The notes under the pieces: generated by a model
Database searches by the model: none
What the model was told of the DNA's origin: nothing
What the model saw: only the letters and a program-made list of their open reading frames with translations
Part shown: piece after piece, positions 16,636 through 35,907 of the stretch
How positions within the stretch are numbered: the first letter of the stretch is position 1
Layout: the number at the start of each line of letters is the position of its first letter
Translations under genes and position numbers: made by a program
Origin: an uncultured Candidatus Saccharibacteria bacterium
GTDB lineage: Bacteria; Patescibacteriota; Dojkabacteria; GCA-002793355
DNA length: 64,000 nt
Assembly (NCBI GenBank): GCA_964525295.1
Contig: CAZGEO010000002.1
Location: 1,230-65,229 of the forward strand
Reading direction: 5' to 3'

Positions 16636-19600
16636 ATTACTTCGTAAACGTGTCGTGCTGTTTTTAATTTTTCTTACCTTTTTAGTTCCCGGTATAGAGC
16701 CAGTTTCTGCAGTTAATGTTACTGGTACAATTTCGACAAATACAACATGGAATACCTCGGGAACGCCATACGTTATGACAGGAAATGTGACGGTTGCAAG
16801 TGGTGTCACCCTCACGATTGATGGAACTGCAGGCTTAGTTGAAGTAAGAAGCGGTGGTAATTACAGGTTGACGGTAAATACTGGTGGCACGCTAATTGTT
16901 ACTGGAACTTCAGCGAATCCTGTTAGATTTACGCATAATACATCAACGAGTTTAGGCGCATGGGGGGGAGTTAGGGTCGCTTCTGGCGGTACTGCAACGG
17001 TAAACTACGCAAGAATGACCTATTCGTCTACGTCATTCATGGCAGATGGTGGGACCTTAGTAGTAAATGACTCAGTATTAGAATCAAATACAAATGGTCT
17101 TGTTGTCGCGAGTACTGGAAATATTACGACTGCAAGAAACACTTTTATCAAGAATACCTATCCAATATCTTTGGAGTGGGAGTCCACATATTCGTTTGGT
17201 ACCGGTGCAGACGCAGATATTCTTGGAACAGATACGAATAAAAATACGTACAATGTTTTGGCAGTTGGTAATTATGATCCATATGGAAACAACTGTCCTG
17301 CAAATGTATGTACAATATCACAGAGAACTTTTGCGGGAATCGCAAATATTCCCTATCAAGTTGTGCCTACAACATATTTTCTCGATTCAGCCGATGACTT
17401 ATATATTTTTGATGCAGGTGTCATAATAAAAGTTGCCAGTAGATTGCACTTTAGACAGGCAACTCGGGTACAGTTCAATAGTTCAAGTGGTAATAATGTA
17501 ATTTTCACGAGTATTCACGATGATACGGTCGGTGGCGATAGCAATAATAATGGCACAGCAACTTCGCCCGCAGCCGGAAATTGGTATGGAATTGTGGTTC
17601 AGTCGAGTCAAGCACAGACATATTCATTTTGTACTATAAAGTATTCGATTTATGGCATTTATGCGAGTGCTGCCACAGCAAATGTTTTGATAACTGATTC
17701 AATTTTCGATAGAAACACTGATGCAGTTAATGCGACAAATGGGGCAACAATTCAGACCGCTCGCAATACCTTTACTCGTAATGATTTTGCAATAAGTGTC
17801 GATTGGGAGGCAACTTACAATTTTGGTGCTGGCGCAGATGTCGACATAATTGGAATAGGTGCTGATAGCAATAAGTATAATGCCATTGGCGTAGGGAATC
17901 AGGATGCTACCGTCTCAGATTGTCCGGCAAATAGCTGTGTGGTTCAAAAGAAAAACTTTGCTGGTATTACAAATATTCCATATATGCAGACATCCACATA
18001 TTATTATATTACTGGAAACGATGACACGACTACCATAGAACCCGGAGTGATTATTAAGAGTACAGGACGTATGTATATTCGTGGTACGTCCAAACTTGTC
18101 GCACAGGGTACTGTAGGCGAACCAATTTATTTTACGAGCTATCGAGATGATTCAATTGGTGGAGATTCAAATAATGATTCAACAACAACAACTCCAGCTG
18201 CAGGTAACTGGATTGGGGTGATTTTTGAAAATTCTGTGAATCAAACGGTAAGTAATTGTGTCGTTCGATATGCAGAACACGGCATTACTGCAAGTGGAAA
18301 CACTGGCCTTGTAACTATTCAAGATAATGTATTTGAGAATAATTCTTATGCGGTTAATTCATATAGTAGAGCTGCAATTTCGACAGCTCGAAATACCTTC
18401 AAAAAGAATGTTTTTCCTGTAAGTATGGATTGGGAAGCGCAAGTAACTTTTGGTCAAGGTGCCAATACCGATATTCTGGGTAGTGGGGCAGATAAAAACA
18501 CATATAAAGCAATATCAGTCGGTGCATATGACAACAATAATACTGATTGTATTGCGAACCAATGTACCATAAGTCAGCTGACTTTTGCCGGAATTTCAAA
18601 TATTGATTATGTACTAGAACCTTTCATATATTACTTCAATAGTGCAGATGATGTTATAACGTTTGATCCTGGGGTTGTTATCAAAATGGATGGTAGAGTA
18701 CAGGTAAGCAATTCAGTAGTCTTCAACTTTAATGGTACCTCTGGTTCACCAGTTTACTTTACCAGTATTCACGATGATACTATCGGAGGTGACATTGCAG
18801 AAAATGGTTCAGCTACAGTACCTGCCCGTGGTGACTGGTATGCTTGGATATTTTTGGGGACTACTGCAGTAAGCTTTGATAATTGCGTTGTCAAGTATGG
18901 AAATGTAAGTGTTATTTCAGGCGCAGCCTCGGCTGTTGTGTATGTAACAGATAATGTTTTTGAAAATAATATCTATCCAGTAAGTGCAAATAATAATGGC
19001 GTAATTCATACGGCAAGAAATGTATTTCGCAAGAATCAAGCTCCAGTATCACTTGAATGGGACTCAACTTTAGTTCCTGGAACAGATAGCAATGCTGATA
19101 TCTTAGGTACTGGCATCGATGCAAATGATTTTAATGCTATTAAAGTAGGAGCACATGACAAAAATGCTACTAACTGCCCAGCAAATACGTGTACGGTATC
19201 ACAACTCACCTTTGGTGGAATTCAGAATATACCCTATTACGCAACGAACGAAATTGTCTTTGAAGGTACCGATGACACACTAGTATTTTCACCTGGAGTA
19301 ATAATGAAATTCGACGGTGGTAGCGTAACGGTAAGAAGTGGTGCAAAAATTTCGATTGCAGGAACTTCTGCAGGTCGAGTAGTTTTTACCTCTGCGAGAG
19401 ATGACTCGGTTGGGGGAGACACAAATAATAATGGTTCAACCAATGCACCTGCAAAAGCCGATTGGAATTCTTTGAATCTTCAATCTGGTGCTAATTCGGT
19501 CGCATTTGTGGAAGTCCGTTATTCCCGTGATGGTATTTATGCAACTGGGGGCACACTATCAGTTTCGGATGCAGACTTAACGACTAATACAAATGGAATG

Positions 19601-20632
19601 TGGGTCGTATTAAGTGCATCACCAACTCTAGCGAGAATAAACTTTCAAGGGAACACCACAGGTTTACGTAATGGTAATAGCACGATAATTCAAGCACAAA
19701 ATCTCTGGTGGAATAGTGTCAATGGTCCCAATGATACGAGCAGTACCGGCCAGTGTCCACTTAATGTATCAACTGGCGATGCAGTAATCGATACCTCAAC
19801 AAATCCAGTTCTGTATTGCCCATTTGCAGTAACCAAATTTAACGCGAATTCATTGCCATCTGCTGCAGATACCTTGATTGATGGTGGAAATATTGTCGTA
19901 AATTTGACCGAGTCAACGACTACTTCAGTAACCTGCACTACCAATGTTATTGATGCTGATGGTTATACTGATATCGCGGGGGTAAATGCGATTTTATATA
20001 GAACATCACTCGGCGATAGTGGATCGAACAATGACAATTATCGGTACTCAGTTGCCTGTTCTGCAGGTTCTGGAAGTGGCACCTTACGTGCGTATTCATG
20101 CAACTTTACTGTTTGGTTTCATGCAGATCCGACAGATGCCTCTTCAGCAAATTCAGGTGATGATTGGACTTGCAAGGTAAGTCCTTACGATGCAGGTGGG
20201 GTTGGGGTAACTGATACAGATACCATTGAAATGGGATCGGTTATCGGAATTGAAGTCTCTAGTCATATTAATTATGGTAACCTAAACGGTGGCGACAATA
20301 CAGGAAGTACAAATATTACGAGTGCAATAGCTAATTCAGGAAACGTAGCAATCGATATTGAAATGTATGGTCAAGATATGTGTACAGACTTCCCAGCCTG
20401 TGCAGCTGGGGTCATTCCCGTTACTCGTCAGCAATATAATACTAGTTCGTTTAGCTATGGAGCTGGAACAGCATTAACTGCTTCACCAGTATTTATTCCT
20501 CTTAATATTGCAAAATCAACGGCTCATCCACCAAATCTGTCGAGTACACTATATTGGGGGCTAGGTATTCCTGCTGGTGCGCAAATGGGGGCATATACGG
20601 GGCAGAATACTTTTACAGCGTTGTTACATTAA
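16616..20632 (+). CDS. Giant secreted beta-helix repeat protein with a C-terminal WxL-like domain
   Basis: ~1339 aa from the ATG at 16616 (the longer ORF from 16553 overlaps the upstream gene). Signal peptide MMTFLGRLLRKRVVLFLIFL..VSA. Four ~209-aa modules with PbH1-like NxxGI turns. The C-terminus is homologous to that of the 551-aa protein. Confidence 0.7.
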   Translation: MMTFLGRLLRKRVVLFLIFLTFLVPGIEPVSAVNVTGTISTNTTWNTSGTPYVMTGNVTVASGVTLTIDGTAGLVEVRSGGNYRLTVNTGGTLIVTGTSANPVRFTHNTSTSLGAWGGVRVASGGTATVNYARMTYSSTSFMADGGTLVVNDSVLESNTNGLVVASTGNITTARNTFIKNTYPISLEWESTYSFGTGADADILGTDTNKNTYNVLAVGNYDPYGNNCPANVCTISQRTFAGIANIPYQVVPTTYFLDSADDLYIFDAGVIIKVASRLHFRQATRVQFNSSSGNNVIFTSIHDDTVGGDSNNNGTATSPAAGNWYGIVVQSSQAQTYSFCTIKYSIYGIYASAATANVLITDSIFDRNTDAVNATNGATIQTARNTFTRNDFAISVDWEATYNFGAGADVDIIGIGADSNKYNAIGVGNQDATVSDCPANSCVVQKKNFAGITNIPYMQTSTYYYITGNDDTTTIEPGVIIKSTGRMYIRGTSKLVAQGTVGEPIYFTSYRDDSIGGDSNNDSTTTTPAAGNWIGVIFENSVNQTVSNCVVRYAEHGITASGNTGLVTIQDNVFENNSYAVNSYSRAAISTARNTFKKNVFPVSMDWEAQVTFGQGANTDILGSGADKNTYKAISVGAYDNNNTDCIANQCTISQLTFAGISNIDYVLEPFIYYFNSADDVITFDPGVVIKMDGRVQVSNSVVFNFNGTSGSPVYFTSIHDDTIGGDIAENGSATVPARGDWYAWIFLGTTAVSFDNCVVKYGNVSVISGAASAVVYVTDNVFENNIYPVSANNNGVIHTARNVFRKNQAPVSLEWDSTLVPGTDSNADILGTGIDANDFNAIKVGAHDKNATNCPANTCTVSQLTFGGIQNIPYYATNEIVFEGTDDTLVFSPGVIMKFDGGSVTVRSGAKISIAGTSAGRVVFTSARDDSVGGDTNNNGSTNAPAKADWNSLNLQSGANSVAFVEVRYSRDGIYATGGTLSVSDADLTTNTNGMWVVLSASPTLARINFQGNTTGLRNGNSTIIQAQNLWWNSVNGPNDTSSTGQCPLNVSTGDAVIDTSTNPVLYCPFAVTKFNANSLPSAADTLIDGGNIVVNLTESTTTSVTCTTNVIDADGYTDIAGVNAILYRTSLGDSGSNNDNYRYSVACSAGSGSGTLRAYSCNFTVWFHADPTDASSANSGDDWTCKVSPYDAGGVGVTDTDTIEMGSVIGIEVSSHINYGNLNGGDNTGSTNITSAIANSGNVAIDIEMYGQDMCTDFPACAAGVIPVTRQQYNTSSFSYGAGTALTASPVFIPLNIAKSTAHPPNLSSTLYWGLGIPAGAQMGAYTGQNTFTALLH
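17132..19639 (+). repeat. Four in-frame tandem coding repeats of exactly 627 nt (209 aa) inside the giant beta-helix gene
   Basis: Modules begin ARNTFIKN (17132), ARNTFTRN (17759), ARNTFKKN (18386) and ARNVFRKN (19013). ~50% aa identity with a conserved CPAN-C, FAGI-NIPY, FTS-DD-GGD and AAGNW skeleton. Confidence 0.8.
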
Positions 20633-22116: not shown

Positions 22117-22356
22117 CGGAATTAATAAATACGGGGAATATGGGTGCATATTCCCGAGATTCGCCCACCTCACGGCTTTACTCGGTGCCTCTGCTTGAGT
22201 TCAGCACGTTCCTCGACCCACGGTTGTTCGCATATGAAATCGTTCATATGCTCATTCAACCGTTTCTCATCCCACAATTCTTCCCTTTTTCAATTTCTCT
22301 CACTCGCCCCGTATTTTTCAATTTCGGTTCACGAGCGTAAACCGTTAAAACGAATG

Positions 22357-22376
22357 TTTTGACGTTAGTGAGTGAG
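22357..22376 (+). repeat. Direct repeat copy 2 (TTTTGACGTTAGTGAGTGAG)
   Basis: See copy 1. It lies immediately left of the element attL. Confidence 0.6.
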
Positions 22377-22390
22377 AGAAATTTGAAAAA

Positions 22391-22411
22391 CGGAGGGGGA
22401 GGGATTCGAAC
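22391..22411 (+). repeat. attL direct repeat (copy of the tRNA-Ser 3' end)
   Basis: Identical 21-mer to 32978-32998. The flanks diverge on both sides. Confidence 0.75.
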
Positions 22412-22439
22412 ACCCACCAAATTTCGGACTCGTTAATCT

Positions 22440-22453
22440 ATCCTTGCAAGGAT
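22440..22453. repeat. Perfect 14-bp palindrome ATCCTTGCAAGGAT just inside the element left end
   Basis: Self-complementary 14-mer 29 bp from the attL core. Possible recombinase arm site. Confidence 0.4.
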
Positions 22454-22753
22454 TTTACTTGGGCAGGATTACGCACACTTGTCACGAAATTTGCACTTGA
22501 TGTATTCAAAGGTTGTTAGGCGCGTTCCCGCTCTGCGTCGAATGCAAATTGTTGCATTCTCCTTGAGTTTCTCATCCCAACATAATAAATGTAGGTGTCT
22601 GCCACTGTTTACACAGTACCAAACACCTACACGGAAGTTCTGTTCGCTTGTTCGCAACCTCATTATATTTGATGGACAGGCACTTTTCAATGTTTTAGGA
22701 ATGATGAAATCAACCAATGAAAGAAATAATACTTTATTAATTAACCTGCATAT

Positions 22754-25027
22754 CTAATCGTCATTTGAAAAGTGGTTTTCTTTCGGATTTAAAAATAAAT
22801 CTACAATCTTCTTAGACTCTTCATCCAAATTTTTTAATTTTAAAACTTTTTCCTTTACGACATCATATTTGTAGAACACCTCGAAGTTCTTTTTTATAAA
22901 GTTTTGAGTCTTTTTATAGCTATAATCAGACATTCCCTGACTTCTTGTTGTAGAGATAAATGCTTTAATGATGTACTTTAAATTCTTTGGCTTTTCTGCA
23001 TTTTCAAGAAATTTGGATAAGTCGGTATTGTCTCCCCATTCTTTCCATGTAAACAAAATATAAGCTAAATCTTTATGCTCAATCAATATATTAAACTTTG
23101 CCTTATTGAGCTTTTCTACACATAGCGTTTGTAATTCGGTTATATTTGATGTATCTAAAATGAATTTTGATTCGTCTTTTGCTTCATCTTTCTTTGGAGT
23201 CTCTAAGGAAACAAATTTTATTGGGCCGATAATACCTTGTGATAGTGGGATAAGCTTACTAATAAGTTCATTGTTTGCCTTTTTGTCCTTTATGTTTTTA
23301 AGAAGATGAAAAATAACTCGTTGTAAATCCATGTCTATTCCAAAATCCCACATTGAATCTTCGGTTTCTGGCAAAATATCGGAGACATTAAATAATGCAA
23401 GAATTATATTTTCGTAGTTTGTAGAAGGTATTAATTCCGTATCCGAAGTGTATGAAAGCATCTTTTTAAGTAGCTTTCTAATTCTCTTACTTTCTATATA
23501 TTTTCTAATTTCTGTTTCAAAGTCCTTTTGAATATTTGCTAGACTAAAAATGTATTCAATCTCAAATTGAGAAATTTCCCCTTCATCTCCACCTGGTATA
23601 AGAGTGAAATATTGATCAAAACAACTTGTAGCACATATTCTAAGTGTTTTTTCCCATACCTCTTGCCATTCATGTCCATACGAAGTATTGCCAAACCCAT
23701 CTACATTACCTTTAACCTGAGGGAATAACTCAAAAATAATTTTTCTAGTGCTCTCTCTTTGTTCAAGAGAAACTTTATCAAAGGCAGACGATATTTTGCT
23801 TTTTCGTTCCTCTCTTGGTTTTGTACTTGAGCCAATATAATTTGATTCTGTGGTGGTAAACAAGATTTTTTCATATTTTAGAAAATTGTAAAACTCAGGA
23901 GCAAATATTCGTACAGATTCTAATGCAAAGAAATCAACAGGATTAATTTCTAAGATATTTTTATTAATTAATTGTTTTATTGAGAACTCTAACCCATTGA
24001 TAAACCTTTTAATATCCCTAATGGTTACAAAATAGTCTTTAAATCCTGAATTATAAATATTTGCCCAGTAGGAGTCTTTGTCGAAGTAAATAGATGATTT
24101 TTCAGGTAACAACGACAAGATTCTATCTAATTCCGAAAACAAATATTGATGTATTTTAGATTGGTGTCTTAATGGAAGATCTAAATTTACCTGTACTATT
24201 TTTTCTAAGTACTCTTTTCCATTCACCTTTAAATAGTCTCCAATACTATTTTCGATTATATCCTTATCGTAAGCTAACAAATAGATTGTATTAGGAAAGT
24301 TAGCATTTGCTCTAATAAGTCTGAATACTTCATTCATTTCAGCTGGAGTCAATCTATCAATGTCGTCAATTACAATAAGTAATTTCTTATCTCGGTTGTT
24401 TAAGTTCTTTTCAATAGAACTCTTTACTTCATCAATTGAATAACTTTTATCACTGACCTTTGCTTCAAAGTATGCAGATACTTTCCTGAAAAATGTCTTG
24501 ATAATCCCTAAAATTAGCAATATAAGTCCTACAATGAATAGTATGAGCGATACTTCTTTTGAATATGGGTTTAAGGATGAGATGATTCTATCTGCTGTAA
24601 TTCCAATAATTCCTATGAGGATTACAACAACTTGTTGAAAGCTTATGGTGTCCTCAACGGTGGGAATGATCTCTAAAAAACTAGCATATTTTTTAAACTG
24701 CTTTGCGAGTGCTAAATCTTTTTCATTTTCATTTTTTGACTCGAGTTGAGTAGAAATTTCGTTGAAAAACTTATTTGTAATATCTGCATTAGAGAATTCC
24801 CAAGGATTAAAGCTAATAAGCGTTGGCGTTTTTTCCTCTTGAAATAAAGATTCTTTAACAAGGTTGATTATTGAGGTTTTACCAGTACCCCATTTACCAT
24901 TTAATGATATAACTAGGCTTTCTTTGTTTTTCCATTCCTTTATTGCGTTTGATAGTGAATCGGAAAAATGACTTCTATTTAGTATGTCGTCATTTCTTTT
25001 TTCGATTGGTTGATCTGGTTTAAACAT
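22754..25027 (-). CDS. KAP-family P-loop NTPase
   Basis: 757 aa. N-terminal Walker A SLNGKWGTGKTS, an internal pair of TM helices interrupting the NTPase (a KAP hallmark), Walker B IVIDDID. Confidence 0.8.
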   Translation of the reverse strand: MFKPDQPIEKRNDDILNRSHFSDSLSNAIKEWKNKESLVISLNGKWGTGKTSIINLVKESLFQEEKTPTLISFNPWEFSNADITNKFFNEISTQLESKNENEKDLALAKQFKKYASFLEIIPTVEDTISFQQVVVILIGIIGITADRIISSLNPYSKEVSLILFIVGLILLILGIIKTFFRKVSAYFEAKVSDKSYSIDEVKSSIEKNLNNRDKKLLIVIDDIDRLTPAEMNEVFRLIRANANFPNTIYLLAYDKDIIENSIGDYLKVNGKEYLEKIVQVNLDLPLRHQSKIHQYLFSELDRILSLLPEKSSIYFDKDSYWANIYNSGFKDYFVTIRDIKRFINGLEFSIKQLINKNILEINPVDFFALESVRIFAPEFYNFLKYEKILFTTTESNYIGSSTKPREERKSKISSAFDKVSLEQRESTRKIIFELFPQVKGNVDGFGNTSYGHEWQEVWEKTLRICATSCFDQYFTLIPGGDEGEISQFEIEYIFSLANIQKDFETEIRKYIESKRIRKLLKKMLSYTSDTELIPSTNYENIILALFNVSDILPETEDSMWDFGIDMDLQRVIFHLLKNIKDKKANNELISKLIPLSQGIIGPIKFVSLETPKKDEAKDESKFILDTSNITELQTLCVEKLNKAKFNILIEHKDLAYILFTWKEWGDNTDLSKFLENAEKPKNLKYIIKAFISTTRSQGMSDYSYKKTQNFIKKNFEVFYKYDVVKEKVLKLKNLDEESKKIVDLFLNPKENHFSNDD

Positions 25028-25029
25028 AC

Positions 25030-26553
25030 TTAATCAAAATTCTTAATTGAATCTTCGTAAAGCCTATCAAATAAATTGCTGGTATGCATTATGTACTCTG
25101 GAATCTGAAACTTTCCATTTGTTAATTTTTCATATAAATCCTTTATTGTTTTATCTAAACTTTCTGAATAAATAAACGGGATTTTTTTAATATAATTCGC
25201 AGAGTTATTTGCAGTATGGTTAATGACCTTCAATAATTGAGTACAAATCTCCGAGTTAAGAAAAGTAAGTAAATATAAATAATGTTCATCATTCTCAGGA
25301 AAAATCCCCACGATTGATTGATCAAAAAGCCTATCTTTCAATTCAAACGCAAATAGTCTCGAGCCTTTTACCATTGGGATACCAATCCCTTTTTTAAAAT
25401 AATACTTTGAGTTTTGGAATCTAGCTTTTTTATCTTTTCTATAATAATCAACACTTGCTTTATTCCAATTTATAAACCACTCATTTTCTTTGACAAGATG
25501 TGATCCTCCACCTTTAAGGATTGGAATATATGAATTCTTGCCATTGATTCCATTAATATCAATTTCTTGATTGAACGATATTAAGTCTTTATCTACGGGA
25601 ATTAAGTCTTTTGCCCCTTTAACCGTATTTGAGATGGGCTTTAAATGCAATTTATTATCACCTGAATAAAAACCTGTGACACAATTAGCAATATCTCCAA
25701 CTTTTGTATGATAATTAGTAATGAAACTTCTAACTTTTTCATCACCTCCTATATAAAAAGACAAAGAGTCTGTTGTTTTTATATCATTTTGAAGTACAGA
25801 ATAATTACTATCTCCTTGATTCGAAGCTGTTTTTAACAAATTAATATCTTCGACTTTTGTTGAAACTGAAACGATTTTAATTCTATCTTCTTCAGTATTT
25901 GGTCTTTTAACTAAAGTGATTATACATAGGTTTGAATAACCAAAACTTACACCCGGAAAAAACTTTGATGGAATAAGTAGTATTTCTTCAATTGTTGTAC
26001 TGAATAACAATATTTTCCTTATCTTCTTATGGAGATTTAATGCTAGAAATGTATCTGGCACTATAAATACAAGCCTGCCATTCTCTCGAAGTAATGAGAT
26101 GCAACGTTCAAGGAATAGTGTATATGTTTCTTTGACATATCCACCATACTTTTTTTTGAGATTTGCTTTCTTTTTTTCATCTTGCCAAGCACCATACGGT
26201 GGATTTCCAATTATTTTTGTAAAGTATCCACCACTATTCGCATATAAGTCAAAAGTCAAATCAAACAAAGTATCAACTTCACGAATTTTTATACCTTTAT
26301 CTTGAAACTTTCTTTTCAGTTCTTTAACTGCTTTGGGGTTTAAATCAACTGCTTCGATGAATTCTGATGAAAAATCTTGAGATAATATTTTCTCAATAAA
26401 TAATCCATCTCCAGCACAAGGCTCTAGAATAACATCCTTTTTTACTAATTTCAGTTTGTCTACCATATAATCCAAGATAGGATCTGCATCCGTATAATAC
26501 GAACAGTATTCATATCTCTTTCTTGTTTTTCCGTTAATTATGTTGTCTACCAT
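25030..26553 (-). CDS. N6-adenine DNA methyltransferase (gamma-class, NPPY) with a C-terminal target-recognition region
   Basis: 507 aa. Motif I VILEPCAGDGLF, motif IV IIGNPPYG. Overlaps the upstream gene by 7 nt. Confidence 0.8.
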   Translation of the reverse strand: MVDNIINGKTRKRYEYCSYYTDADPILDYMVDKLKLVKKDVILEPCAGDGLFIEKILSQDFSSEFIEAVDLNPKAVKELKRKFQDKGIKIREVDTLFDLTFDLYANSGGYFTKIIGNPPYGAWQDEKKKANLKKKYGGYVKETYTLFLERCISLLRENGRLVFIVPDTFLALNLHKKIRKILLFSTTIEEILLIPSKFFPGVSFGYSNLCIITLVKRPNTEEDRIKIVSVSTKVEDINLLKTASNQGDSNYSVLQNDIKTTDSLSFYIGGDEKVRSFITNYHTKVGDIANCVTGFYSGDNKLHLKPISNTVKGAKDLIPVDKDLISFNQEIDINGINGKNSYIPILKGGGSHLVKENEWFINWNKASVDYYRKDKKARFQNSKYYFKKGIGIPMVKGSRLFAFELKDRLFDQSIVGIFPENDEHYLYLLTFLNSEICTQLLKVINHTANNSANYIKKIPFIYSESLDKTIKDLYEKLTNGKFQIPEYIMHTSNLFDRLYEDSIKNFD

Positions 26554-27476
26554 TCCAAATATTGCAGTAAGCTATTCTTTTTTAAATGGGAATACATTAC
26601 TGAGTCGAAATCCTTTTCCCAGTCAATAAAAGTATTCATCCAATTTGCTAAATTAAAGCCAGTTACTTCCTCAATTTTCTTGTATGTTTCTGTCCCACAA
26701 TAAACCGTCCAGAGCCCTGATCTTTTTAATGTTTGTAGATAATGGTTATTGTTTTCTTCACTTGCTCGTACAAATAGTAAACATTGATGACCTTCTTCAA
26801 GTATTTTGTATATACTTGCGACTAAAAGGAGTCGATTAGTATTGCCTTTTTCGTTTGAGCTAAAGCCACTCTTAAAGTCAACGACAAATTTATCCTGTCC
26901 GTTTTCAAAATGTAAATCAAGCTCAAGGCTTATTTCGCCAGATGTGACTAATGTCCAAACTTTTTGATAATATTTTCTTAATTCCGCCTTTTCTTCCTCA
27001 GTGATATTTAATGAGTCGATAAAATCATTTAGTTCTGCTGACAGTTTTATGCGGACATCATTGAAAAGTGGAGGAATAATATACTTAACATTCTGATTAA
27101 TTGGATTTTCCCAACATAATTGACAAAATGGCTCCCATAGTTCACCTATCCTTCTTGCAAATGTCATGTACTCGTATGGCCATACTTCATTTCGTGATTC
27201 CATCATTACTATGTAGTTTGTATATGTAATCAATAAGACACCTTCTAAAATTGCTTTTGAAGACCAATTCTCAGACTGGGCTTTTTGTTTTAGTGTTTTT
27301 ATTAAATTCTCCTTGCATGAAACTAATTCACTATTAATTGCTGAAGCCCGCAGTTTGTAGTCTTTTTCTCCATAGGTTTGCTTGATTTGAGATAGAAACT
27401 CTCTAGATCTGCTTCTAAAATATTCTAGAAGTTCAGTCTTTTTTGTTCGGATATTATTGTCTATTAGTTCAGACAT
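26547..27476 (-). CDS. Putative restriction endonuclease (PD-(D/E)xK-like) partner of the MTase
   Basis: 309 aa. Candidate ELDLH ... VVDFKSG catalytic residues. Sits between the C-protein gene and the MTase gene in a translationally coupled operon. Confidence 0.4.
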   Translation of the reverse strand: MSELIDNNIRTKKTELLEYFRSRSREFLSQIKQTYGEKDYKLRASAINSELVSCKENLIKTLKQKAQSENWSSKAILEGVLLITYTNYIVMMESRNEVWPYEYMTFARRIGELWEPFCQLCWENPINQNVKYIIPPLFNDVRIKLSAELNDFIDSLNITEEEKAELRKYYQKVWTLVTSGEISLELDLHFENGQDKFVVDFKSGFSSNEKGNTNRLLLVASIYKILEEGHQCLLFVRASEENNNHYLQTLKRSGLWTVYCGTETYKKIEEVTGFNLANWMNTFIDWEKDFDSVMYSHLKKNSLLQYLEW

Positions 27477-27477
27477 T

Positions 27478-27699
27478 TTATTTATATAATAATTTATCTA
27501 TTGTTACTTCCAAAGCTTCTGCAACTTTCATTATAAAGTTGATTGATGGCTTTTTTATTACCTCAGTTTCAACTTTTACTAGAGTAGTGAGTGGAATATC
27601 AGCCTTTCTTGCTAACGCTTCCTGCGACAAATCTTTTTCCTTTCGCCACTTCTTTATTTGCTCTGCAATATTAACTTTTTGCGTATGTCGTGTTTCCAT
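27478..27699 (-). CDS. XRE-family HTH regulator (R-M controller C-protein-like)
   Basis: 73 aa. LSQEALARKADIPLTTLVKVE helix-turn-helix. First gene of the R-M operon. Confidence 0.75.
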   Translation of the reverse strand: METRHTQKVNIAEQIKKWRKEKDLSQEALARKADIPLTTLVKVETEVIKKPSINFIMKVAEALEVTIDKLLYK

Positions 27700-27793
27700 T
27701 TATTGCAAGTCTATTAATGTTACTTTGTATAGTTTAGCATTCAAAAATTAAATCTACAAATAAAATGCTTGTATTCAAAATCTGCTCAGATTG

Positions 27794-27822
27794 TTGACAA
27801 ACTATTTAGAGTGGTATATATT
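27794..27822 (+). promoter_or_regulatory. Sigma70-type promoter for the plus-strand element genes
   Basis: TTGACA at 27794-27799, 17-nt spacer, TATATT at 27817-27822. Divergent from the C-protein gene. Confidence 0.45.
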
Positions 27823-27860
27823 AGTATAGTGACAAACATTAATATATTTAACTCAATACT

Positions 27861-28640
27861 ATGAATATCGTAGATAAAACAATAAGTAACTTTGTAAAAC
27901 AGATGTATGAATGGGGTTTAACTTCCGATACAACAAATAGATATGATCTTTCCTCAGATACAGTTGTCGATTTGATTACAAAAAGCTCATGGAATATTGA
28001 ATTTGATAGAAAGAAACTCATTTACTATTCACGACATAGTTTTCTTCCCTCAGCTAAGAAAATGGGCTTAACCTCTGCACTTGGTGGAACAGTTGGTTAT
28101 CACAAAATCAAAGTACCAATGATGTTATGGTACATTCACCAGTTGTACAAACGAGGATATAAGCATGATGAAATACGCATCCATGTTTACAACTATTTTT
28201 CAAGCCAGTTGCCACCAAAACCAGTTGAAAATACTCCAATGGAAGAAAGAGTCCTCTACAATCTAAGACTTAATAAAAAGCTCTTTGTAGCCCTCCCAGT
28301 TGTTGAAGAAATGACTGTGTATACTCAAAAGGTATCAATACCATGTTGGAAACTAACAGTATTTGACTATTACCACTCAAAATTAGACCCATTCTATGTG
28401 GTTTTAATCCCTAAAAATAACTTAACAACTCAAGAAGCTAATATCCTTTCAGTTTTACGAACTGATAACGAGTATCTCAAACAAGAGGGATTTAAACGAG
28501 TTTCAATTGTTGATGGGGTATCAAGCATTGAATATCTTGAACCTTTAATGATTTACAAGAACTACGCCATGAAAACCGATAACGATAGTACCGATTATTT
28601 AGATTTATTAGATCAAAATATCTCTTATGACACAATCTAA
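27861..28640 (+). CDS. hypothetical protein (element cargo)
   Basis: 259 aa with no recognisable motif. Confidence 0.4.
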   Translation: MNIVDKTISNFVKQMYEWGLTSDTTNRYDLSSDTVVDLITKSSWNIEFDRKKLIYYSRHSFLPSAKKMGLTSALGGTVGYHKIKVPMMLWYIHQLYKRGYKHDEIRIHVYNYFSSQLPPKPVENTPMEERVLYNLRLNKKLFVALPVVEEMTVYTQKVSIPCWKLTVFDYYHSKLDPFYVVLIPKNNLTTQEANILSVLRTDNEYLKQEGFKRVSIVDGVSSIEYLEPLMIYKNYAMKTDNDSTDYLDLLDQNISYDTI

Positions 28641-28842
28641 AGTATCACCTGAACTAAAAAAACAATATCTTGAGCTATTACAAAGCCCTGAAATATACAA
28701 TATTCACTTGGAAGATCTCAAAAAGATAATTGAAGAATTTACAAAATTTGAGTTTGGTACTTACGAAATTAAAATATCAAATAAAAGGATTGATAGCACG
28801 ATATTACATATAAAAACAGGTAAAAGAAAAACGAAACAATAA
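28627..28842 (+). CDS. small hypothetical protein
   Basis: 71 aa, overlaps the upstream gene by 14 nt. Confidence 0.3.
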   Translation: MTQSKVSPELKKQYLELLQSPEIYNIHLEDLKKIIEEFTKFEFGTYEIKISNKRIDSTILHIKTGKRKTKQ

Positions 28843-28890
28843 GTAAATAATTTAGATATTAGCCCTCAGCTACCCTTAGTTGAGTTGTAG

Positions 28891-28967
28891 AGAGGTCTAA
28901 GTCTTAAAGGTCATTTGTTAAGCATAACGCTTACAGCCTTTTTGATTTAGACCTCTTTTTTGTTTTT
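28891..28967 (+). terminator. Candidate intrinsic terminator (10-bp stem AGAGGTCTAA/TTAGACCTCT with a structured loop, then TTTTTGTTTTT)
   Basis: Perfect 10-bp inverted repeat 28891-28900/28947-28956 followed by a T-run. Confidence 0.4.
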
Positions 28968-29146
28968 AAAACATATGAAGAAGCGAAAGCAGAAAACAAA
29001 AAATGAAAAAGTAATGCGTGAGTTTGCAAGAAACTGGATTCTGCTATTCCTTGAGCAAAATGGATATTCGCATTTAATTGGTAAATCTAAAAAGGTAACG
29101 AAATCGTCAGTAGATATAAACCCATTAAGCAACTTTTTGAAAAACA

Positions 29147-29935
29147 ATGATAAAAGCAAATAACCAAGACAAAGTAATATTTCGAGAGTTAGAAAAGCAA
29201 TACGGTTTTGCTCAAATTAGCCATTTAATAACGGAAGATAGATTGCTTTCAGACCTTGCAGTCAGAGTTTATTTAGCTTTGCTCAAATATGCCATGAATA
29301 AAAACTACTGCTTTCCAGGACAAGACAGACTATCCGAAACAATCGGCAAAAGCAGAAGCTCAGTATTTAGAGGATTAAATGAGCTTAGAAATCGTGGGCT
29401 TGTGTCTTGGAAAACACGAGGACTTAACAAAACGAATATGTATATCCTTGAGCCAATTTCAGAAATATATGCTGAAAAACTCAATACTATTGCGGATGTG
29501 TCAGAATTGCAACATCCAGATGTTGCAAAATTGACACATCAAGGTGAGTCAGATTTGACCTACAAAGAATATAAAGTTAAAGAAGAAAAGATTAAAAATA
29601 ATAAGTTAACGTTAAACGATGATTTTAAATCTTATTTAGAGGAAGCGATAGAACTAGCTAAAGAACTAAACGACCTCAAAAGCATCAAATATTATCAAAT
29701 GCTAATCAGCCAAAAGAACAAAGGCATTGTTAATTCAGAAGATATTACAGATTCTCTTATTTTTACACGCACTCAAATTCGTACAGCTCAAGTTGATGGA
29801 ACAAAACCTCTCAGCAATCCTGCTGGACTATTTGTAAAAACACTTAAAGATTTACAGGAGAAACGAAAACGCAAAGAGCAATTGGCAAAACTTGAAACTA
29901 TGAGGAATAAATTCTTAGAAAAATCTAAATTTTAA
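29147..29935 (+). CDS. HTH_36-type replication initiator / replisome organiser-like protein
   Basis: 262 aa. FPGQDRLSETIGKSRSSVFRGLNELRNRGLV matches the winged-HTH of plasmid/phage Rep proteins. Charged coiled-coil C-terminus. Confidence 0.5.
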   Translation: MIKANNQDKVIFRELEKQYGFAQISHLITEDRLLSDLAVRVYLALLKYAMNKNYCFPGQDRLSETIGKSRSSVFRGLNELRNRGLVSWKTRGLNKTNMYILEPISEIYAEKLNTIADVSELQHPDVAKLTHQGESDLTYKEYKVKEEKIKNNKLTLNDDFKSYLEEAIELAKELNDLKSIKYYQMLISQKNKGIVNSEDITDSLIFTRTQIRTAQVDGTKPLSNPAGLFVKTLKDLQEKRKRKEQLAKLETMRNKFLEKSKF

Positions 29936-30067
29936 CTATTAAAAACCATGATTGATAAAGTGTTGAATGTACCTCACCGAAAAGGGCTTTTGGAGGGATC
30001 CAGTTTCTCACCATGTTGTCAAATACGAAAGTTACGGTCTGTCGGACTTTTACAGAACCTCGTGACT

Positions 30068-30115
30068 GATTGGGTGGAAGACGAAACTGCGTTTCCTAAT
30101 GTCTTCCACCCAATC
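30068..30115. repeat. 15-bp perfect inverted repeat with an 18-nt loop containing a nested 5-bp hairpin (candidate replication origin or regulatory stem-loop)
   Basis: GATTGGGTGGAAGAC (30068-30082) and GTCTTCCACCCAATC (30101-30115). The loop holds GAAAC-TGC-GTTTC. Flanked by GAGGGA/TCCCTC. Locally GC-rich. Confidence 0.7.
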
Positions 30116-30219
30116 ACTCCCTCGACAACGATTAATGTGTGTGAGTTACACATTAAGTTCTGTGAAAAGTGTGTGATCGACAGACCTTACTTTATTTAAT
30201 TTTTTAGTTATTTATTTTT

Positions 30220-31197
30220 ATGAAAGACAGTTATATAGCAAAGTACAATGATATTGCGATATTAGGGATAGTTAATAGTTTTAGATTTTTACCGCTTCAA
30301 GTTTTGACTAAGATTTTGATTGAGAAGAAGTTATACGGAAGTTATCAAGCTGTTAGTAGAACAGTAAACAGATTAAGGGAACATGGATTAATTAGAACGA
30401 CTTACTATACCAACAATGCCAAAATTATATTTTTATCTCGTCTTGGGGCAAAACAGCTCGCAACTGGTACAGGTGTGAGTGAAGATTCCATTAATTGCCC
30501 TGAAAGGCTAACAGGTGTGAATTTCTTCGCATTGGAACATACAGTTAAAGTTGCAAATCTGTATTTATTACTGCTTCGAGAGTGTCAAAAACACAATTTA
30601 ATCCTCAGAAAATTTACAGGTGACCATTTTACACGGTACGAATATCAGTTTCGCAATACTTCATCGGGTAGGATTATCAAGCGATATGTAATGCCTGATG
30701 CAGAAGTTGAAATACAAATAGAAAATATCGTTTTTTCATTTTGGATTGAATACGACAGAGGAACGGAATATTCAAAAGATGTTGCGGTCAAATACATGAA
30801 ATACTTTGAATATTTTGATCAACTCAAACAACAAAAAGTTTATACTTATCCAAATATCCTCTTTATCACCGAAAGCACAAAAGAAAGACTTAAAAACCTT
30901 GTTGTATTTGAGCCTGAATATACAGGTAATTGGAGTTGGAGTCATGCCAGTATGAACTTCAAGAATGTTGTTTTAAAGGGTGTAACAATGGCAGATGATA
31001 TTCGCAGTATGACGGATTATGTTGTAGATGATTTTTTGCAAAAGGATAGATTTCTTTTTACCGACTATGCGACCTTTGAGCAAAAGGGATTGAGTACAGA
31101 GTTTCTCAATATGAACGCCGAAAACTTCGATTTACTTAATTTCATAAAAAAGGAAGTCGAAAAATTAACAGAAAATAAAAACGATGGTAGAATATAA
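30220..31197 (+). CDS. Replication-relaxation family-like protein (N-terminal wHTH)
   Basis: 325 aa. Its N-terminus resembles the winged-helix of plasmid replication-relaxation proteins. Confidence 0.35.
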   Translation: MKDSYIAKYNDIAILGIVNSFRFLPLQVLTKILIEKKLYGSYQAVSRTVNRLREHGLIRTTYYTNNAKIIFLSRLGAKQLATGTGVSEDSINCPERLTGVNFFALEHTVKVANLYLLLLRECQKHNLILRKFTGDHFTRYEYQFRNTSSGRIIKRYVMPDAEVEIQIENIVFSFWIEYDRGTEYSKDVAVKYMKYFEYFDQLKQQKVYTYPNILFITESTKERLKNLVVFEPEYTGNWSWSHASMNFKNVVLKGVTMADDIRSMTDYVVDDFLQKDRFLFTDYATFEQKGLSTEFLNMNAENFDLLNFIKKEVEKLTENKNDGRI

Positions 31198-31220: not shown

Positions 31221-31493
31221 ATGACCCAAAAGCTATTAAAGGGTTATTTGATAGTAATAAGGGCTATTCGTACAATTTCATGCAAATGGAGTTGTGGTCA
31301 ACGAGTAGCCCTTTTTTGTTATGTAAATATGATGATTAGTAAAACATTAAATAAGAATATTAAACACGAACAAACAACCTATTCTGAGGAGGAAATAAGG
31401 CGGTTAGCCAAATATTTTGAGATATTAATAAAAATAAATGACCGTATTAAATTAGTTAAACAACCAAAATGCAAAACCAAGAAAATACAATAA
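31221..31493 (+). CDS. small hypothetical protein (possible recombination directionality factor)
   Basis: 90 aa basic protein immediately upstream of, and overlapping, the integrase start. Confidence 0.2.
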   Translation: MTQKLLKGYLIVIRAIRTISCKWSCGQRVALFCYVNMMISKTLNKNIKHEQTTYSEEEIRRLAKYFEILIKINDRIKLVKQPKCKTKKIQ

Positions 31494-33007
31494 AATCTGC
31501 GGTTATTTATACTCGTGTATCTACCGAAGACCAAGCTAAAAAGGACTTATCACTTCCTTACCAACTATCCCAATGCCAAGAATTTGCTAAACGAGAGGGC
31601 TATACAGTAATGGAACATTTTGAAGACCCTGGAAAATCAGGGAGAAATATTCAAAGACCATCGCTTCAATCAATGCTTCATTACATCACTGATAACAAGA
31701 TCAATGCAGTAATTGTTTACAAACAAGATAGGCTTTCAAGAAGTCAGGCTGACTTTTGGGGAATGATTGATTTATTTAAAAGAATAGGTACAGAATTCAT
31801 CTCAATTACTGAAAGATTCGGAAATACAGCAGAGGGAACTATCTCAATGGGTGTAATGTCATCATTTGCTCAATACTATTGTGATTATTTATCAGGCAAT
31901 GTTAAAAAAGGTCAAAAGCAAAAAGTTAATATTGGTTGGTGGCCAACATTTGCACCTTTAGGATATGAAAATTTTGGTGAAAAGAGTTTCAAGAAAATTA
32001 GACCAGTAAAAGAAATTGCAGAACAAGTTGTTCATGCCTTTAAATTGTTTGCAACTGGTCAATATTCAATTACAGAGCTTACAGAAACAATGATAAAACG
32101 AGGTATGACTTCAAATGGAGGAAACCCAATATCAAGAACAGCAATAGGTAGAATGTTAAGAAATCCTATCTATTATGGAAGCTTCTATTGGAACGGAGAG
32201 TTATACAAAGGAGAACATGAGCCAATACTCGACAAAGAACTTTTCGATAGCGTACAGGCGGTTCTAGACCTCAACAGAACGAAAGGTACAAGGGATTGTA
32301 AACACAATTTCATGTTAAGAGGCTATCTTTACTGTAAATGTGGTTCAATGCTTACAGGTGAGATTAAAACCAAGAATTACAAAAACGGAAATTCTCAACA
32401 ATTTGCATATTATGGTTGTAAGAGCAGAAAAAAATCAAAAGATTGCTCAAGAACATATATTGCTATGAATAAAATCGAAGATATGGTTACGGATTTATTC
32501 AAAAGTGTGCAGTTTTCTGATGAATTCAAAAAGATAGTATTGTCCGAAGCTAAAAAGATTATTTCTGAGATACGAGATACTGAAAGCGATGAAGAAAAGA
32601 TAATCAAGCAAAGGATAGCTAGACTTAATCTAAGAATGAAGAACGCAGAAGACGACCGCTTTGACCGAGTAATTACAAGAGAGCATTTCACACAAGTTTA
32701 TGAAAGGATAAAGGCAGAACTTGATGAAGCTAACATTGAGTTGTCAAAACTCAATAAAGACCATACAAAAACTATTAAAGTACTTGATGAACTACTTGCT
32801 TTTACTGATGATATTCAAAAATCGTATATTGAGGCTGATAATGAGCTTAAAAGAAGATATCTGCAAATCTTCTTTGAGAAAATAATTGTGAATGATGGAC
32901 AAATTGTTGATGTGATATACACACCTGCAATTTCTCAACTTTTAGAAATTGATCGAGTCCGAATAACGAATAACTGGCGGAGGGGGAGGGATTCGAACCC
33001 ACGATAG
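31469..33007 (+). CDS. Large serine recombinase (integrase)
   Basis: 512 aa. Resolvase catalytic domain AVIYTRVSTEDQ, recombinase domain, Cys-rich zinc ribbon (CKCGS..YYGCKSRKKSKDC) and coiled-coil. The last ~11 codons are encoded antisense to tRNA-Ser. Confidence 0.85.
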   Translation: MQNQENTIKSAVIYTRVSTEDQAKKDLSLPYQLSQCQEFAKREGYTVMEHFEDPGKSGRNIQRPSLQSMLHYITDNKINAVIVYKQDRLSRSQADFWGMIDLFKRIGTEFISITERFGNTAEGTISMGVMSSFAQYYCDYLSGNVKKGQKQKVNIGWWPTFAPLGYENFGEKSFKKIRPVKEIAEQVVHAFKLFATGQYSITELTETMIKRGMTSNGGNPISRTAIGRMLRNPIYYGSFYWNGELYKGEHEPILDKELFDSVQAVLDLNRTKGTRDCKHNFMLRGYLYCKCGSMLTGEIKTKNYKNGNSQQFAYYGCKSRKKSKDCSRTYIAMNKIEDMVTDLFKSVQFSDEFKKIVLSEAKKIISEIRDTESDEEKIIKQRIARLNLRMKNAEDDRFDRVITREHFTQVYERIKAELDEANIELSKLNKDHTKTIKVLDELLAFTDDIQKSYIEADNELKRRYLQIFFEKIIVNDGQIVDVIYTPAISQLLEIDRVRITNNWRRGRDSNPR

Positions 33008-33064
33008 GCATACACCTATATCAGTTTTCAAGACTGACGCCATCAACCACTCGGCCACCCCTCC
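32975..33064 (-). tRNA. tRNA-Ser (anticodon TGA), with encoded CCA
   Basis: 90-nt type II tRNA. GGAGGGG acceptor, 3-bp D stem, anticodon loop CTTGAAA, long variable arm (ATAGG/CCTAT), T loop TTCGAAT. The 3' 21 nt form the element attR core. Confidence 0.85.
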
Positions 33065-33129: not shown

Positions 33130-34041
33130 TCAATTCAATGCTAGTTGCATTACAGGAATAATAACCGATCTTTCGGTTGATTGCTTAATTGTAGAGGAAG
33201 CTGATCCAGCATAGAAAAGTCTACCAGGAGCTATGCAAAAGGCATCGAACGTGACATTATCGGTAGGCGTTGGGTGAAAGTAATTATCGAGGGTTGAGAT
33301 TCTTGCATTGTGTAATGGAAGAGCCCAGGTAGATGAATTGGTAACCATTGAAAGTGGTGCCGATACGCCATTGATTGTACTAGCTACGTGCGCTAAAACG
33401 ATACATTCGCTATTGTTTGGTGCGCCGGAGATATTTCCTGAAACGGCTATCTTCTCCTGTGTAGCGACGAGAGTTTTTGGTAGTTGCAAAGCCTTTGTTA
33501 TTGGGGATGCTCCAACAAAGTAATAAATGTTCTCTGGTTTCAGATTTTTTGCGGTGGCGCTATGCAAATATGATGGAGAAATAACTCCACGGTCATCAGT
33601 TACCTTGTTTGTTAAAGCATTTTGTGAATTTCCGTGAGATAAAAGTGTTGGTTGTGGAGCTTCAGTCAGCCAGATGAGGGTAAACGACGAATCTGAAATA
33701 TTTGATAACAGTCCTGTTGTTGTTAGTTCAGTGTAAAAAGAGGGAGTCTGTTGTTTTGTAACTGTCGAGGGGGTCATTGTTTCAATCGGAATATATGGGG
33801 CAGGTGCTTGTAAAAGTGATTCAGCAACAGAAGAAAGTACACTAACTTGATCTATCTGCTCGGGTGTAGGAGAGGCCTCAACAATTGGAGTGTTTGGATA
33901 ATAAATTGTTGCTGATGCGTTACGCGTGTGACCATTTTTGATATAAGGGATAATTACCAAAAGAGCAAGAAAAGTTACAGAAACAACAAATATACCAATT
34001 GGAAAAACGATTGAGAATTTTTCGGGCAATTTCATACTCAC
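33130..34041 (-). CDS. Secreted hypothetical protein (N-terminal signal anchor), last gene of the T4SS-like module
   Basis: 303 aa. N-terminal hydrophobic helix, then a Ser/Thr/Pro-rich extracytoplasmic region. Confidence 0.45.
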   Translation of the reverse strand: MSMKLPEKFSIVFPIGIFVVSVTFLALLVIIPYIKNGHTRNASATIYYPNTPIVEASPTPEQIDQVSVLSSVAESLLQAPAPYIPIETMTPSTVTKQQTPSFYTELTTTGLLSNISDSSFTLIWLTEAPQPTLLSHGNSQNALTNKVTDDRGVISPSYLHSATAKNLKPENIYYFVGASPITKALQLPKTLVATQEKIAVSGNISGAPNNSECIVLAHVASTINGVSAPLSMVTNSSTWALPLHNARISTLDNYFHPTPTDNVTFDAFCIAPGRLFYAGSASSTIKQSTERSVIIPVMQLALN

Positions 34042-35906: not shown

Positions 35907-35907
35907 A

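Follow-up and report, generated by a model that had tools for sequence, protein, structure and literature searches.

A PifA-like KAP NTPase gene tightly linked to a predicted type II restriction-modification locus on a serine-recombinase integrative element

Four adjacent genes for a predicted restriction-modification system and a KAP NTPase

The stretch of DNA analysed here (the window) comprises 64,000 nucleotides (nt) of contig CAZGEO010000002.1 from an uncultured Candidatus Saccharibacteria bacterium, and this report concerns four adjacent genes on its minus strand and the recurrence of their arrangement in other genomes. The genes encode a small controller (C) protein, a predicted restriction endonuclease (REase), a DNA methyltransferase (MTase) and a KAP-family P-loop NTPase, and they are carried on a serine-recombinase integrative element of ~10.6 kb in a tRNA-Ser gene. 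They are listed in their own 5' to 3' order, preceded by the region upstream of them; related loci and contigs that were compared with the window are labelled with L-numbers.

27700-27860, minus strand: divergent intergenic regulatory region 5' of the C gene, 94% identical to its counterpart in L002
27478-27699, minus strand: C gene, first of the putative operon, XRE/HTH_3 type, 73 amino acids (aa); HTH_3 E=6.8e-13, PADLOC Control_protein E=2e-9
26547-27476, minus strand: predicted type II REase with a PD-(D/E)xK fold, 309 aa; PADLOC REase_II model
25030-26553, minus strand: gamma-class N6-adenine DNA MTase, 507 aa; Eco57I E=5.6e-20, N6_Mtase E=4e-12, TaqI_C E=2e-4
22754-25027, minus strand: PifA-like KAP-family P-loop NTPase, 757 aa; KAP_NTPase PF07693 E=4e-53, PADLOC PifA

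The C and REase genes are separated by 1 nt, the REase and MTase genes overlap by 7 nt, and the MTase and KAP genes are separated by 2 nt (TAA GT ATG). These coordinates agree with the first-pass annotation of this DNA, which had placed the four genes -7 to +2 nt apart and had named their products an XRE-type C protein, a putative REase, a gamma-class MTase and a KAP NTPase with a membrane insert. The searches described below bear out each of these names, and the mobile element on which it had placed the genes is seen in a low GC content, a 21-nt direct repeat from tRNA-Ser and a serine recombinase gene. All four proteins have full-length homologues and strong family matches, therefore the four open reading frames (ORFs) are intact genes.

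A small, co-oriented helix-turn-helix (HTH) gene immediately 5' of the REase gene, here with the 1-nt gap, is the mark of a C-regulated restriction-modification (R-M) system. In the upstream region, an 11-nt inverted repeat with 82% complementarity (27724-27734 and 27750-27760) surrounds a -35-like hexamer, TTGAAT, and this stretch (27724-27760) is a candidate operator, or C-box. It was the one inverted repeat seen in the search for a C-box, in which the L002 region was too alike for comparative inference.

The 309-aa protein aligned end to end with the PADLOC REase_II model PDLC03405 (E=4e-90, residues 10-309 of 310). Its homologues number 2250, and residues E181, D187, D200 and K202 are invariant among 50 of them; an AlphaFold model built from the 50-homologue alignment reached a predicted local distance difference test (pLDDT) score of 91. 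Foldseek with this model gave no significant match (EcoO109I at E=0.11), the protein's family has no Pfam or NCBIfam model and no named member, and its homologues in plasmid records are labelled as hypothetical proteins only. When PDB chains were searched with the REase and KAP sequences, nothing useful was returned. As a separate nuclease-fold endonuclease that is genetically linked to an MTase, the protein has the setting expected of a type II REase.

The MTase also matched PADLOC MTase_II (E=3e-36) and has a TaqI-like C-terminal target-recognition domain. In its translation, motif I (EPCAGDG) stands ahead of the NPPY motif (IIGNPPYG), which is the gamma-class order. Assignment to PglX or DrmMI of BREX or DISARM was rejected, as PglX models matched only partially with 122 bits against a cutoff of 500, and membership of the locus in either system was rejected as the PglZ/BrxC and DrmA/B/D partners are absent from the element.

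The KAP protein scored 181 bits against PF07693, for which the cutoff is 20, and matched the PADLOC PifA profile PDLC02361 over residues 2-738 (profile positions 5-705 of 720, E=5.6e-86). By these profile matches, it is a PifA-like protein of an already catalogued defence family. Its Walker A motif (GKWGTGKT) lies at residue 44 and its Walker B motif (LLIVIDD) at residue 216, and G49, K50, D221 and D222 are invariant among 20 homologues. Between the two motifs lie two hydrophobic stretches (residues ~130-152 and ~157-181), which an AlphaFold2 model renders as a helical hairpin (residues 130-192, pLDDT 80); the C-terminal half is modelled as all-helical. The closest solved fold to this model was that of RdrA, a ring ATPase of RADAR, at E=1.8e-4 and with a low TM-score. 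Conservation is high in the NTPase core, and the variable parts are the membrane insert with its loop (residues ~100-200) and the final ~150 residues; over residues 151-200, identity is 40% even between the window and the sister element described below. This variability, which does not track the R-M partner, would fit a sensor surface.

Two other identities of the KAP protein were considered and rejected. The NCBIfam QatA model gave 58 bits against a cutoff of 600, and the QueC-like and TatD-like genes are absent from the element; for an anticodon nuclease of the PrrC type, no PrrC/RloC model match was found in PADLOC or Pfam. Contigs of viruses and mobile genetic elements had KAP relatives of 26-32% identity only, none of them close, and the best plasmid match, from Shewanella at 30% identity, has no R-M gene directly 5'.

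Exchange of the R-M pair between conserved C and KAP genes

The window's backbone genes recur in identical order in a sister element on contigs L002 and L003. Between L002 and the window, nt identity is 87% from the tRNA gene through the C gene, to position 27474 at the REase start; similarity is then lost over the R-M pair, and identity of 80% resumes exactly at the KAP ATG. The R-M slot of L002 carries an REase of the NgoPII family (RE_NgoPII) and a C5 methylase, with a 2-nt gap before KAP, and the encoded C and KAP proteins are 95% and 82% identical to those of the window. From this break and resumption of homology it follows that the R-M genes were swapped as one cassette, with the C and KAP genes on either side conserved. 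The window differs here from C-controlled R-M systems, in that its C gene and the region upstream stay with the backbone when the R-M pair is swapped.

The whole C-R-M-KAP quartet occurs in a second lineage, represented by L001 and L005, with identities to the window of 68% for R, 54-55% for M and 45% for KAP. The quartet of L001 is flanked by Mg-chelatase and glycoside-hydrolase genes, and the L005 contig ends at the quartet. The architecture thus recurs, and its R-M cassette is swapped.

The R-M family without KAP

The R-M side was sampled through the 80 metagenomic loci with the closest REase relatives (52-74% identity). Wherever the sequence extends far enough, a gamma MTase gene comes directly after the REase gene. 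Many loci have an HTH gene, of one of two kinds, just 5' of R, which makes C-R-M the usual layout in this R-M family. A longer HTH protein (85-129 aa) with a conserved C-terminal extension replaces the short C in L103, L106, L107, L110, L111, L117, L119, L123, L129-L131, L138, L148, L155 and L160; its gene mostly overlaps the REase start by 10 nt, and it is a second regulator type in the family.

A KAP homologue was found in none of the 80 loci, including the 48 that extend at least 300 nt past the MTase gene and the 33 that extend at least 2.3 kb. This R-M family is autonomous without KAP, and KAP as an obligate component of it was rejected on the same count. As a control, tightly coupled genes of any kind after the MTase gene were counted and found in 13 of 44 loci. 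They include an AAA_13 ATPase gene of the PrrC/RloC type (L090:2946-5324, PADLOC candidate PDC-S06), genes for TIR-PNTD1-PNTD2 proteins (L130:2752-4224 and L135), a gene with a weak GHKL ATPase match (L129:10430-12421) and ordinary genes such as those for a PfkB kinase and a TIM-barrel protein. These data suggest that the R-M family has a variable tail slot, of which KAP is one occupant.

Translational coupling is typical for subunits of one complex, and restriction systems that depend on nucleoside triphosphates (NTPs) exist in Types I and III and in McrBC. KAP might accordingly form a new NTP-dependent restriction enzyme with the 309-aa nuclease and the MTase, as one of its integral subunits. 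With KAP found in 0 of the 48 informative loci of the R-M family, anchored in the membrane, and represented by closely similar proteins behind unrelated systems, we consider this highly improbable.

KAP relatives behind other restriction and methylation genes

On the KAP side, one genome per species was scanned, the best 80 of 458 matches were kept, and four metagenomic contexts were added. The tally below covers the 36 loci with a KAP of at least 35% identity and a readable upstream context, with tight coupling defined as the same strand and a gap of at most 20 nt. It is a convenience sample that includes related lineages (L001/L005, L008/L016, L020/L030), and L014 has few ORFs of at least 90 aa under the bacterial code. 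A restriction or methylation gene was the adjacent upstream neighbour of KAP in half of these loci (18 of 36), and in 12 of the 18 KAP is the last gene on the same strand and starts 1-7 nt past the preceding stop. The partners span Type I, Type II (gamma, beta, C5, BsaWI), Type IIM (DpnI) and Type III, as follows.

Gamma-N6 C-R-M before KAP: window, L001, L005
C-NgoPII-C5 MTase before KAP: L002
Type III Mod-Res before KAP: L007, L030, L071
MTase, then a 363-365-aa protein, before KAP: L008, L016
N6_Mtase-Methylase_S fusion before KAP: L009
Beta-class N6/N4 MTase before KAP: L006, L010
C5 MTase-Vsr before KAP: L011
DpnI before KAP: L019
Type I HsdR-M-S before KAP: L024
MTase-BsaWI-MTase before KAP: L166
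Divergently oriented neighbours of KAP: gamma MTase in L022, Mrr in L023

The remaining 18 loci were mixed. KAP follows an AbiL-like AAA_21/RloB pair in L170, AbiEii in L028 and a gene for a GIY-YIG protein in L017; a housekeeping gene (Obg, GatB, tRNA methylase) precedes it in L013, L014 and L029; and in most other loci without R-M genes the neighbours have no identified family. The KAP gene can clearly exist alone.

The KAP proteins of L007, L008, L009, L010, L011 and L019 are 92-98% identical to their nearest in the group, and that of L016 is 86% identical. In pairwise blastn comparisons, homology starts 0-13 nt before the KAP ATG, runs at 80-98% nt identity, and in many pairs stops 0-6 nt past the stop codon; the limits are -11 to +3 for L009/L010 and -1 to +1 for L008/L019. 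By these alignments, the KAP ORF behaves as a portable, partner-independent cassette. Its ORF-exact transfer could be due to a site-specific mechanism, or to selection that favours translational coupling where genomes are compact.

The sequence after the KAP stop has features of its own. L007, L008 and L016, which are otherwise AT-rich, have a common GC-rich palindrome (GTTTGAGG...GGGGCAATTCACCCCTTTT...CCTCAAAC) in the ~80 nt after the KAP stop, and L010, L011 and L019 have a different common GC-rich element there. These elements are probably terminators, but might instead be recombination sites with a part in the cassette behaviour.

PrrC is an anticodon nuclease embedded in the type Ic R-M operon EcoprrI, whose R-M proteins mask it physically. 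By analogy, KAP might be a guard that monitors restriction, stays silent while the R-M system works, and kills the cell through a membrane response once restriction is disabled or evaded by an anti-restriction factor of a phage. The placement of KAP in an R-M operon resembles that of prrC in the EcoprrI hsd locus, and both KAP and PrrC/RloC are NTPase-containing second-line defence genes that stand within a restriction operon or as its last gene and would be expressed with it; of the close KAP relatives, half adjoin restriction or methylation genes of every type, far above any other class; a PrrC/RloC-type AAA_13 ATPase gene occupies the identical tail position in the C-R-M locus L090; and PifA-like KAP genes are embedded in DISARM/ARMADA-like loci. 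On the other hand, KAPs that are 92-98% identical follow Type III, Type II, M-S-fusion and beta-MTase genes, and the window KAP is still 82% identical to its counterpart after the whole R-M pair was swapped, which makes a specific contact with R or M unlikely. Unlike PrrC, the window KAP has no anticodon-nuclease domain, is membrane-anchored and is tied to no single R-M type; its partner independence makes physical masking in the style of PrrC unlikely. Moreover, many KAP relatives are found alone beside housekeeping genes, some follow the AbiL-like pair, and stand-alone KAPs defend by themselves (PMC13552941). A generic sensor of anti-restriction proteins or of restriction products may nevertheless be compatible with these data. 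We regard a guard of this kind as unlikely, although it is the main alternative.

The linkage could also be plain adjacency in a defence island, with KAP expressed independently and the tight spacing due to packing in a compact genome. Defence genes do cluster, the host genome seems compact with short housekeeping proteins, and non-defence genes (PfkB, TIM-barrel) stand tightly after the MTase gene in the same R-M family. A clear Shine-Dalgarno sequence was seen before none of the four genes, therefore coupling cannot be read from ribosome-binding sites. Against adjacency, KAP is on the same strand, last, and 1-7 nt past the stop in all 12 tightly coupled cases, and the coupling has been kept through the R-M cassette swap and between lineages whose KAPs are 45% identical. 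In addition, a weak consensus scan of the minus strand over 22300-28100 found no terminator-like site, nor a strong promoter in front of KAP. The comparative evidence for membership of KAP in the operon is stronger than these promoter and terminator scans, and simple adjacency appears improbable.

Comparison with known systems

C-protein-controlled type II R-M systems are exemplified by PvuII, Esp1396I, AhdI and the BamHI type. The window shares with them a small HTH gene that comes first, is co-oriented and is tightly linked to PD-(D/E)xK REase and MTase genes, and the carriage on a mobile element; it differs in the fourth gene attached to it and in having a C-box that is only a candidate.

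PifA of the F plasmid resembles the window KAP as a KAP P-loop NTPase of similar length (741 versus 757 aa) that is carried on a mobile element and is coupled stop to start behind an operon of a DNA-binding regulator. In the F plasmid record NC_002483.1 (L165:42445-45760), pifA begins 1 nt past the pifC stop. Orthology of the two proteins was rejected, as the NTPase domain alone aligns, and F PifA has no R-M linkage, whereas the window KAP ends an R-M operon. F PifA causes abortive infection of T7 via membrane leakage, triggered by gp1.2 or gp10 (PMC13001434). Four stand-alone KAPs, EF_KAP and three metagenomic ones, protect Enterococcus and require Walker B and the C-terminal region; they are located beside serine recombinases and were treated as single-gene systems (PMC13552941). 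The window KAP is like these proteins in having a transmembrane helix inside the KAP domain, followed by a C-terminal region of ~300-400 residues with no known domain, but unlike these single-gene systems it is the terminal cistron of an R-M operon.

Another explanation is that KAP serves the mobile element, by excluding competing plasmids or elements at the membrane or by stabilising the element, and that KAP and R-M together are selfish stabilisation cargo. R-M systems are classic addiction modules, the KAP gene lies within the conserved backbone-plus-cargo of a serine-recombinase/Replic_Relax element, and L166 has a similar operon beside an HTH_36 gene. Furthermore, PifA is plasmid-borne, and according to a statement quoted in PMC13552941 its primary role is not phage exclusion. 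However, many KAP relatives lie on chromosomes away from any mobile-element genes, viral and mobile-element contigs yielded no close relative, no toxin-antitoxin-like partner is present, and the assayed KAPs do protect against phages (PMC13552941). Service to the element is thus a doubtful explanation, to which we give a small chance.

Tmn, of the YobI family, is reported to act in synergy with Gabija, Septu and PrrC, that is, with ATP-sensitive systems and not with R-M (PMC13001434; 10.1101/2022.08.21.504612). Both Tmn and the window protein are P-loop NTPases whose NTPase domain is interrupted by two transmembrane helices, and Tmn acts at the membrane. Unlike Tmn, which belongs to a different NTPase family and has no long C-terminal domain, the window protein is a KAP in Pfam.

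PifA-like KAP genes of 713 aa were also seen inside DISARM class 1/ARMADA-like arrays of five species (L067, L074, L079, L082, L084), in the order DrmD-DrmMI-KAP-x-DrmA (Drm-like genes). In these arrays, the KAP gene overlaps the end of the methylase gene (e.g., L074:7983-10124), its product matches PADLOC PifA at E=1.5e-115, and a 650-663-aa protein matching a PADLOC REase_II model follows. The likeness to the window lies in a PifA-like KAP gene directly after an adenine MTase gene; the array KAPs are 27-28% identical to that of the window and are internal, and the window has no helicase components. The text of the ARMADA preprint mentions no KAP or P-loop component.

Type II R-M under C control and KAP/PifA defence genes are each known; the operon architecture that joins them appears new. 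A literature search for KAP together with R-M or with DISARM/ARMADA found the architecture undescribed, within a scope that is not proof of its being unpublished. PADLOC would label the locus as R-M and PifA side by side.

Proposed function of the locus

The first-pass annotation had read the four genes as a composite or novel defence module, with the NTPase as sensor or effector of a single system. The coupling on which that reading rested is not accidental: the quartet that was looked for in other genomes is present in L001 and L005, KAP recurs in the sister element, in the second quartet lineage and with at least eight other kinds of restriction or methylation gene, and a promoter or terminator of its own was sought and, in the weak consensus scan above, not seen. 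The single system is not supported, as KAP belongs to a catalogued family, the R-M family lacks it in every informative locus, many KAP relatives stand alone, and near-identical KAPs stand behind unrelated R-M genes. A portable add-on module describes the data better.

We therefore favour, as the probable explanation, an autonomous C-R-M system with a partner-independent KAP that is co-expressed as a second-layer defence module docked on the R-M system and is not a subunit of it. All four genes would be transcribed from a promoter upstream of C, and the KAP cistron would be translated by coupling to the MTase cistron. As the first line, the R-M pair would methylate host DNA and cut unmethylated incoming DNA, and the C protein would be expected to delay REase expression after entry of the element into a new host. 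KAP most likely resides in the membrane as an oligomeric NTPase, by analogy with F PifA and the stand-alone KAPs, and its variable C-terminal region and membrane loop would sense a phage component. NTP hydrolysis would then lead to membrane permeabilisation and abortive infection, or to direct interference, against phages that escape restriction. C-box control and the mechanism and trigger of KAP are likewise proposed from analogy with known systems.

Several points weigh against this explanation. The strong bias towards R-M partners is unexplained by a purely independent module and may hint at a functional link. The KAP sample is limited to the best 80 of 458 matches, with mechanical ORF calls, and the promoter and terminator scans used a simple consensus in AT-rich DNA, where 37 promoter-like sites were found and 26 expected. 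The window KAP and F PifA are 25% identical in BLASTP over residues 5-285 only (~283 residues, E=2e-27), F PifA lacks the hydrophobic insert, and the C-terminal halves have no detectable similarity; there is accordingly little ground for extending the PifA mechanism to the window KAP. EF_KAP, for its part, was reported to be non-abortive (PMC13552941), so the effector mode of the window KAP could be of either kind. Finally, we infer both the co-transcription of the genes and the defence activity of the locus.

A bolder reading, which we hold only tentatively and consider rather unlikely, is that this KAP clade is a dedicated portable tail module, transferred ORF-exactly and docked stop to start on Type I, II, IIM, III and DISARM-like operons, where it would serve as a general back-up, detect that restriction is being evaded or inhibited, and trigger a membrane-level response. 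Possible cues would be an anti-restriction protein, a product of restriction, or modified DNA as it enters at the membrane. If true, it would imply a general two-layer immune architecture of restriction plus KAP and an unexplained mechanism of ORF-exact gene mobility.

The locus alone offers no new defence principle, since its parts are all known, but the recurrent architecture could matter. If the coupling is functional, it would be a compact natural model of layered immunity, with restriction first and a membrane NTPase second, a route to what KAP/PifA-type proteins sense, a question unanswered since PifA was described, and an example of modules being exchanged, with the R-M pair replaced while C and the tail gene stay. 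The architecture further suggests that the separate 'RM type II' and 'PifA' labels given by annotation tools miss the operon-level unit.

The integrative element and its surroundings

The element lies in an island at 23-33 kb of the window with a GC content of ~0.31, against ~0.40 outside. It is bounded by a perfect pair of 21-nt direct repeats (22391-22411 and 32978-32998), which are the 3' end of tRNA-Ser. Its features other than the four genes are listed here.

22391-22411, minus strand: attL-side copy of the tRNA-Ser 3' end, left boundary of the element; 21-nt repeat matching 32978-32998
22632-22753, minus strand: conserved tail 3' of KAP, common to the window and L002; homology with L002 extends to 22632
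27861-31197, plus strand: backbone genes of the element, divergent from the defence operon; ORF list and Pfam
31469-33007, plus strand: large serine recombinase, 512 aa; Resolvase E=2.9e-31, Recombinase E=3e-16, Zn_ribbon_recom E=1e-9
32975-33064, minus strand: tRNA-Ser(TGA), integration target and right boundary of the element; ARAGORN, Rfam tRNA 59.5 bits

The backbone genes encode proteins of 259 aa (no family in Pfam), 71 aa, 262 aa (HTH_36), 83 aa and 325 aa (Replic_Relax), and a scan of the element with Rfam found the tRNA alone. The recombinase ORF on the plus strand ends at 33007 within the minus-strand tRNA-Ser gene and crosses the 21-nt att repeat, therefore its C-terminus is encoded by the integration junction; the homologue in L002 has 539 aa compared with 512 aa in the window.

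In the conserved tail after the KAP stop, ~64 nt at 22632-22695 are essentially identical between the window and L002, compared with only 80% identity in the KAP ORF. A promoter-like site (TTGAAA-17-TATAAT, 22690-22662), which has 11 of 12 consensus positions, is directed toward attL. The conserved stretch could be an attachment half-site of the recombinase, an outward promoter or the promoter of a small RNA.

The genes around the element are bacterial and include those for LepA, PNPase, a short IF-2 and a short AlaRS; the housekeeping proteins are short. Directly past the tRNA-Ser gene, at 33130-37331 on the minus strand, a TraG/VirB4-type P-loop gene (34038-35906) stands amid other minus-strand ORFs; these genes beside the integration site may encode components of a machinery for type IV secretion or DNA uptake, or may belong to a second mobile element. 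On the other side, just outside the element, the translation of a plus-strand ORF of 1359 aa (16553-20632) contains a unit of ~250 residues in at least four internal copies; the repeats resemble a parallel beta-helix, and the product may be a surface protein.

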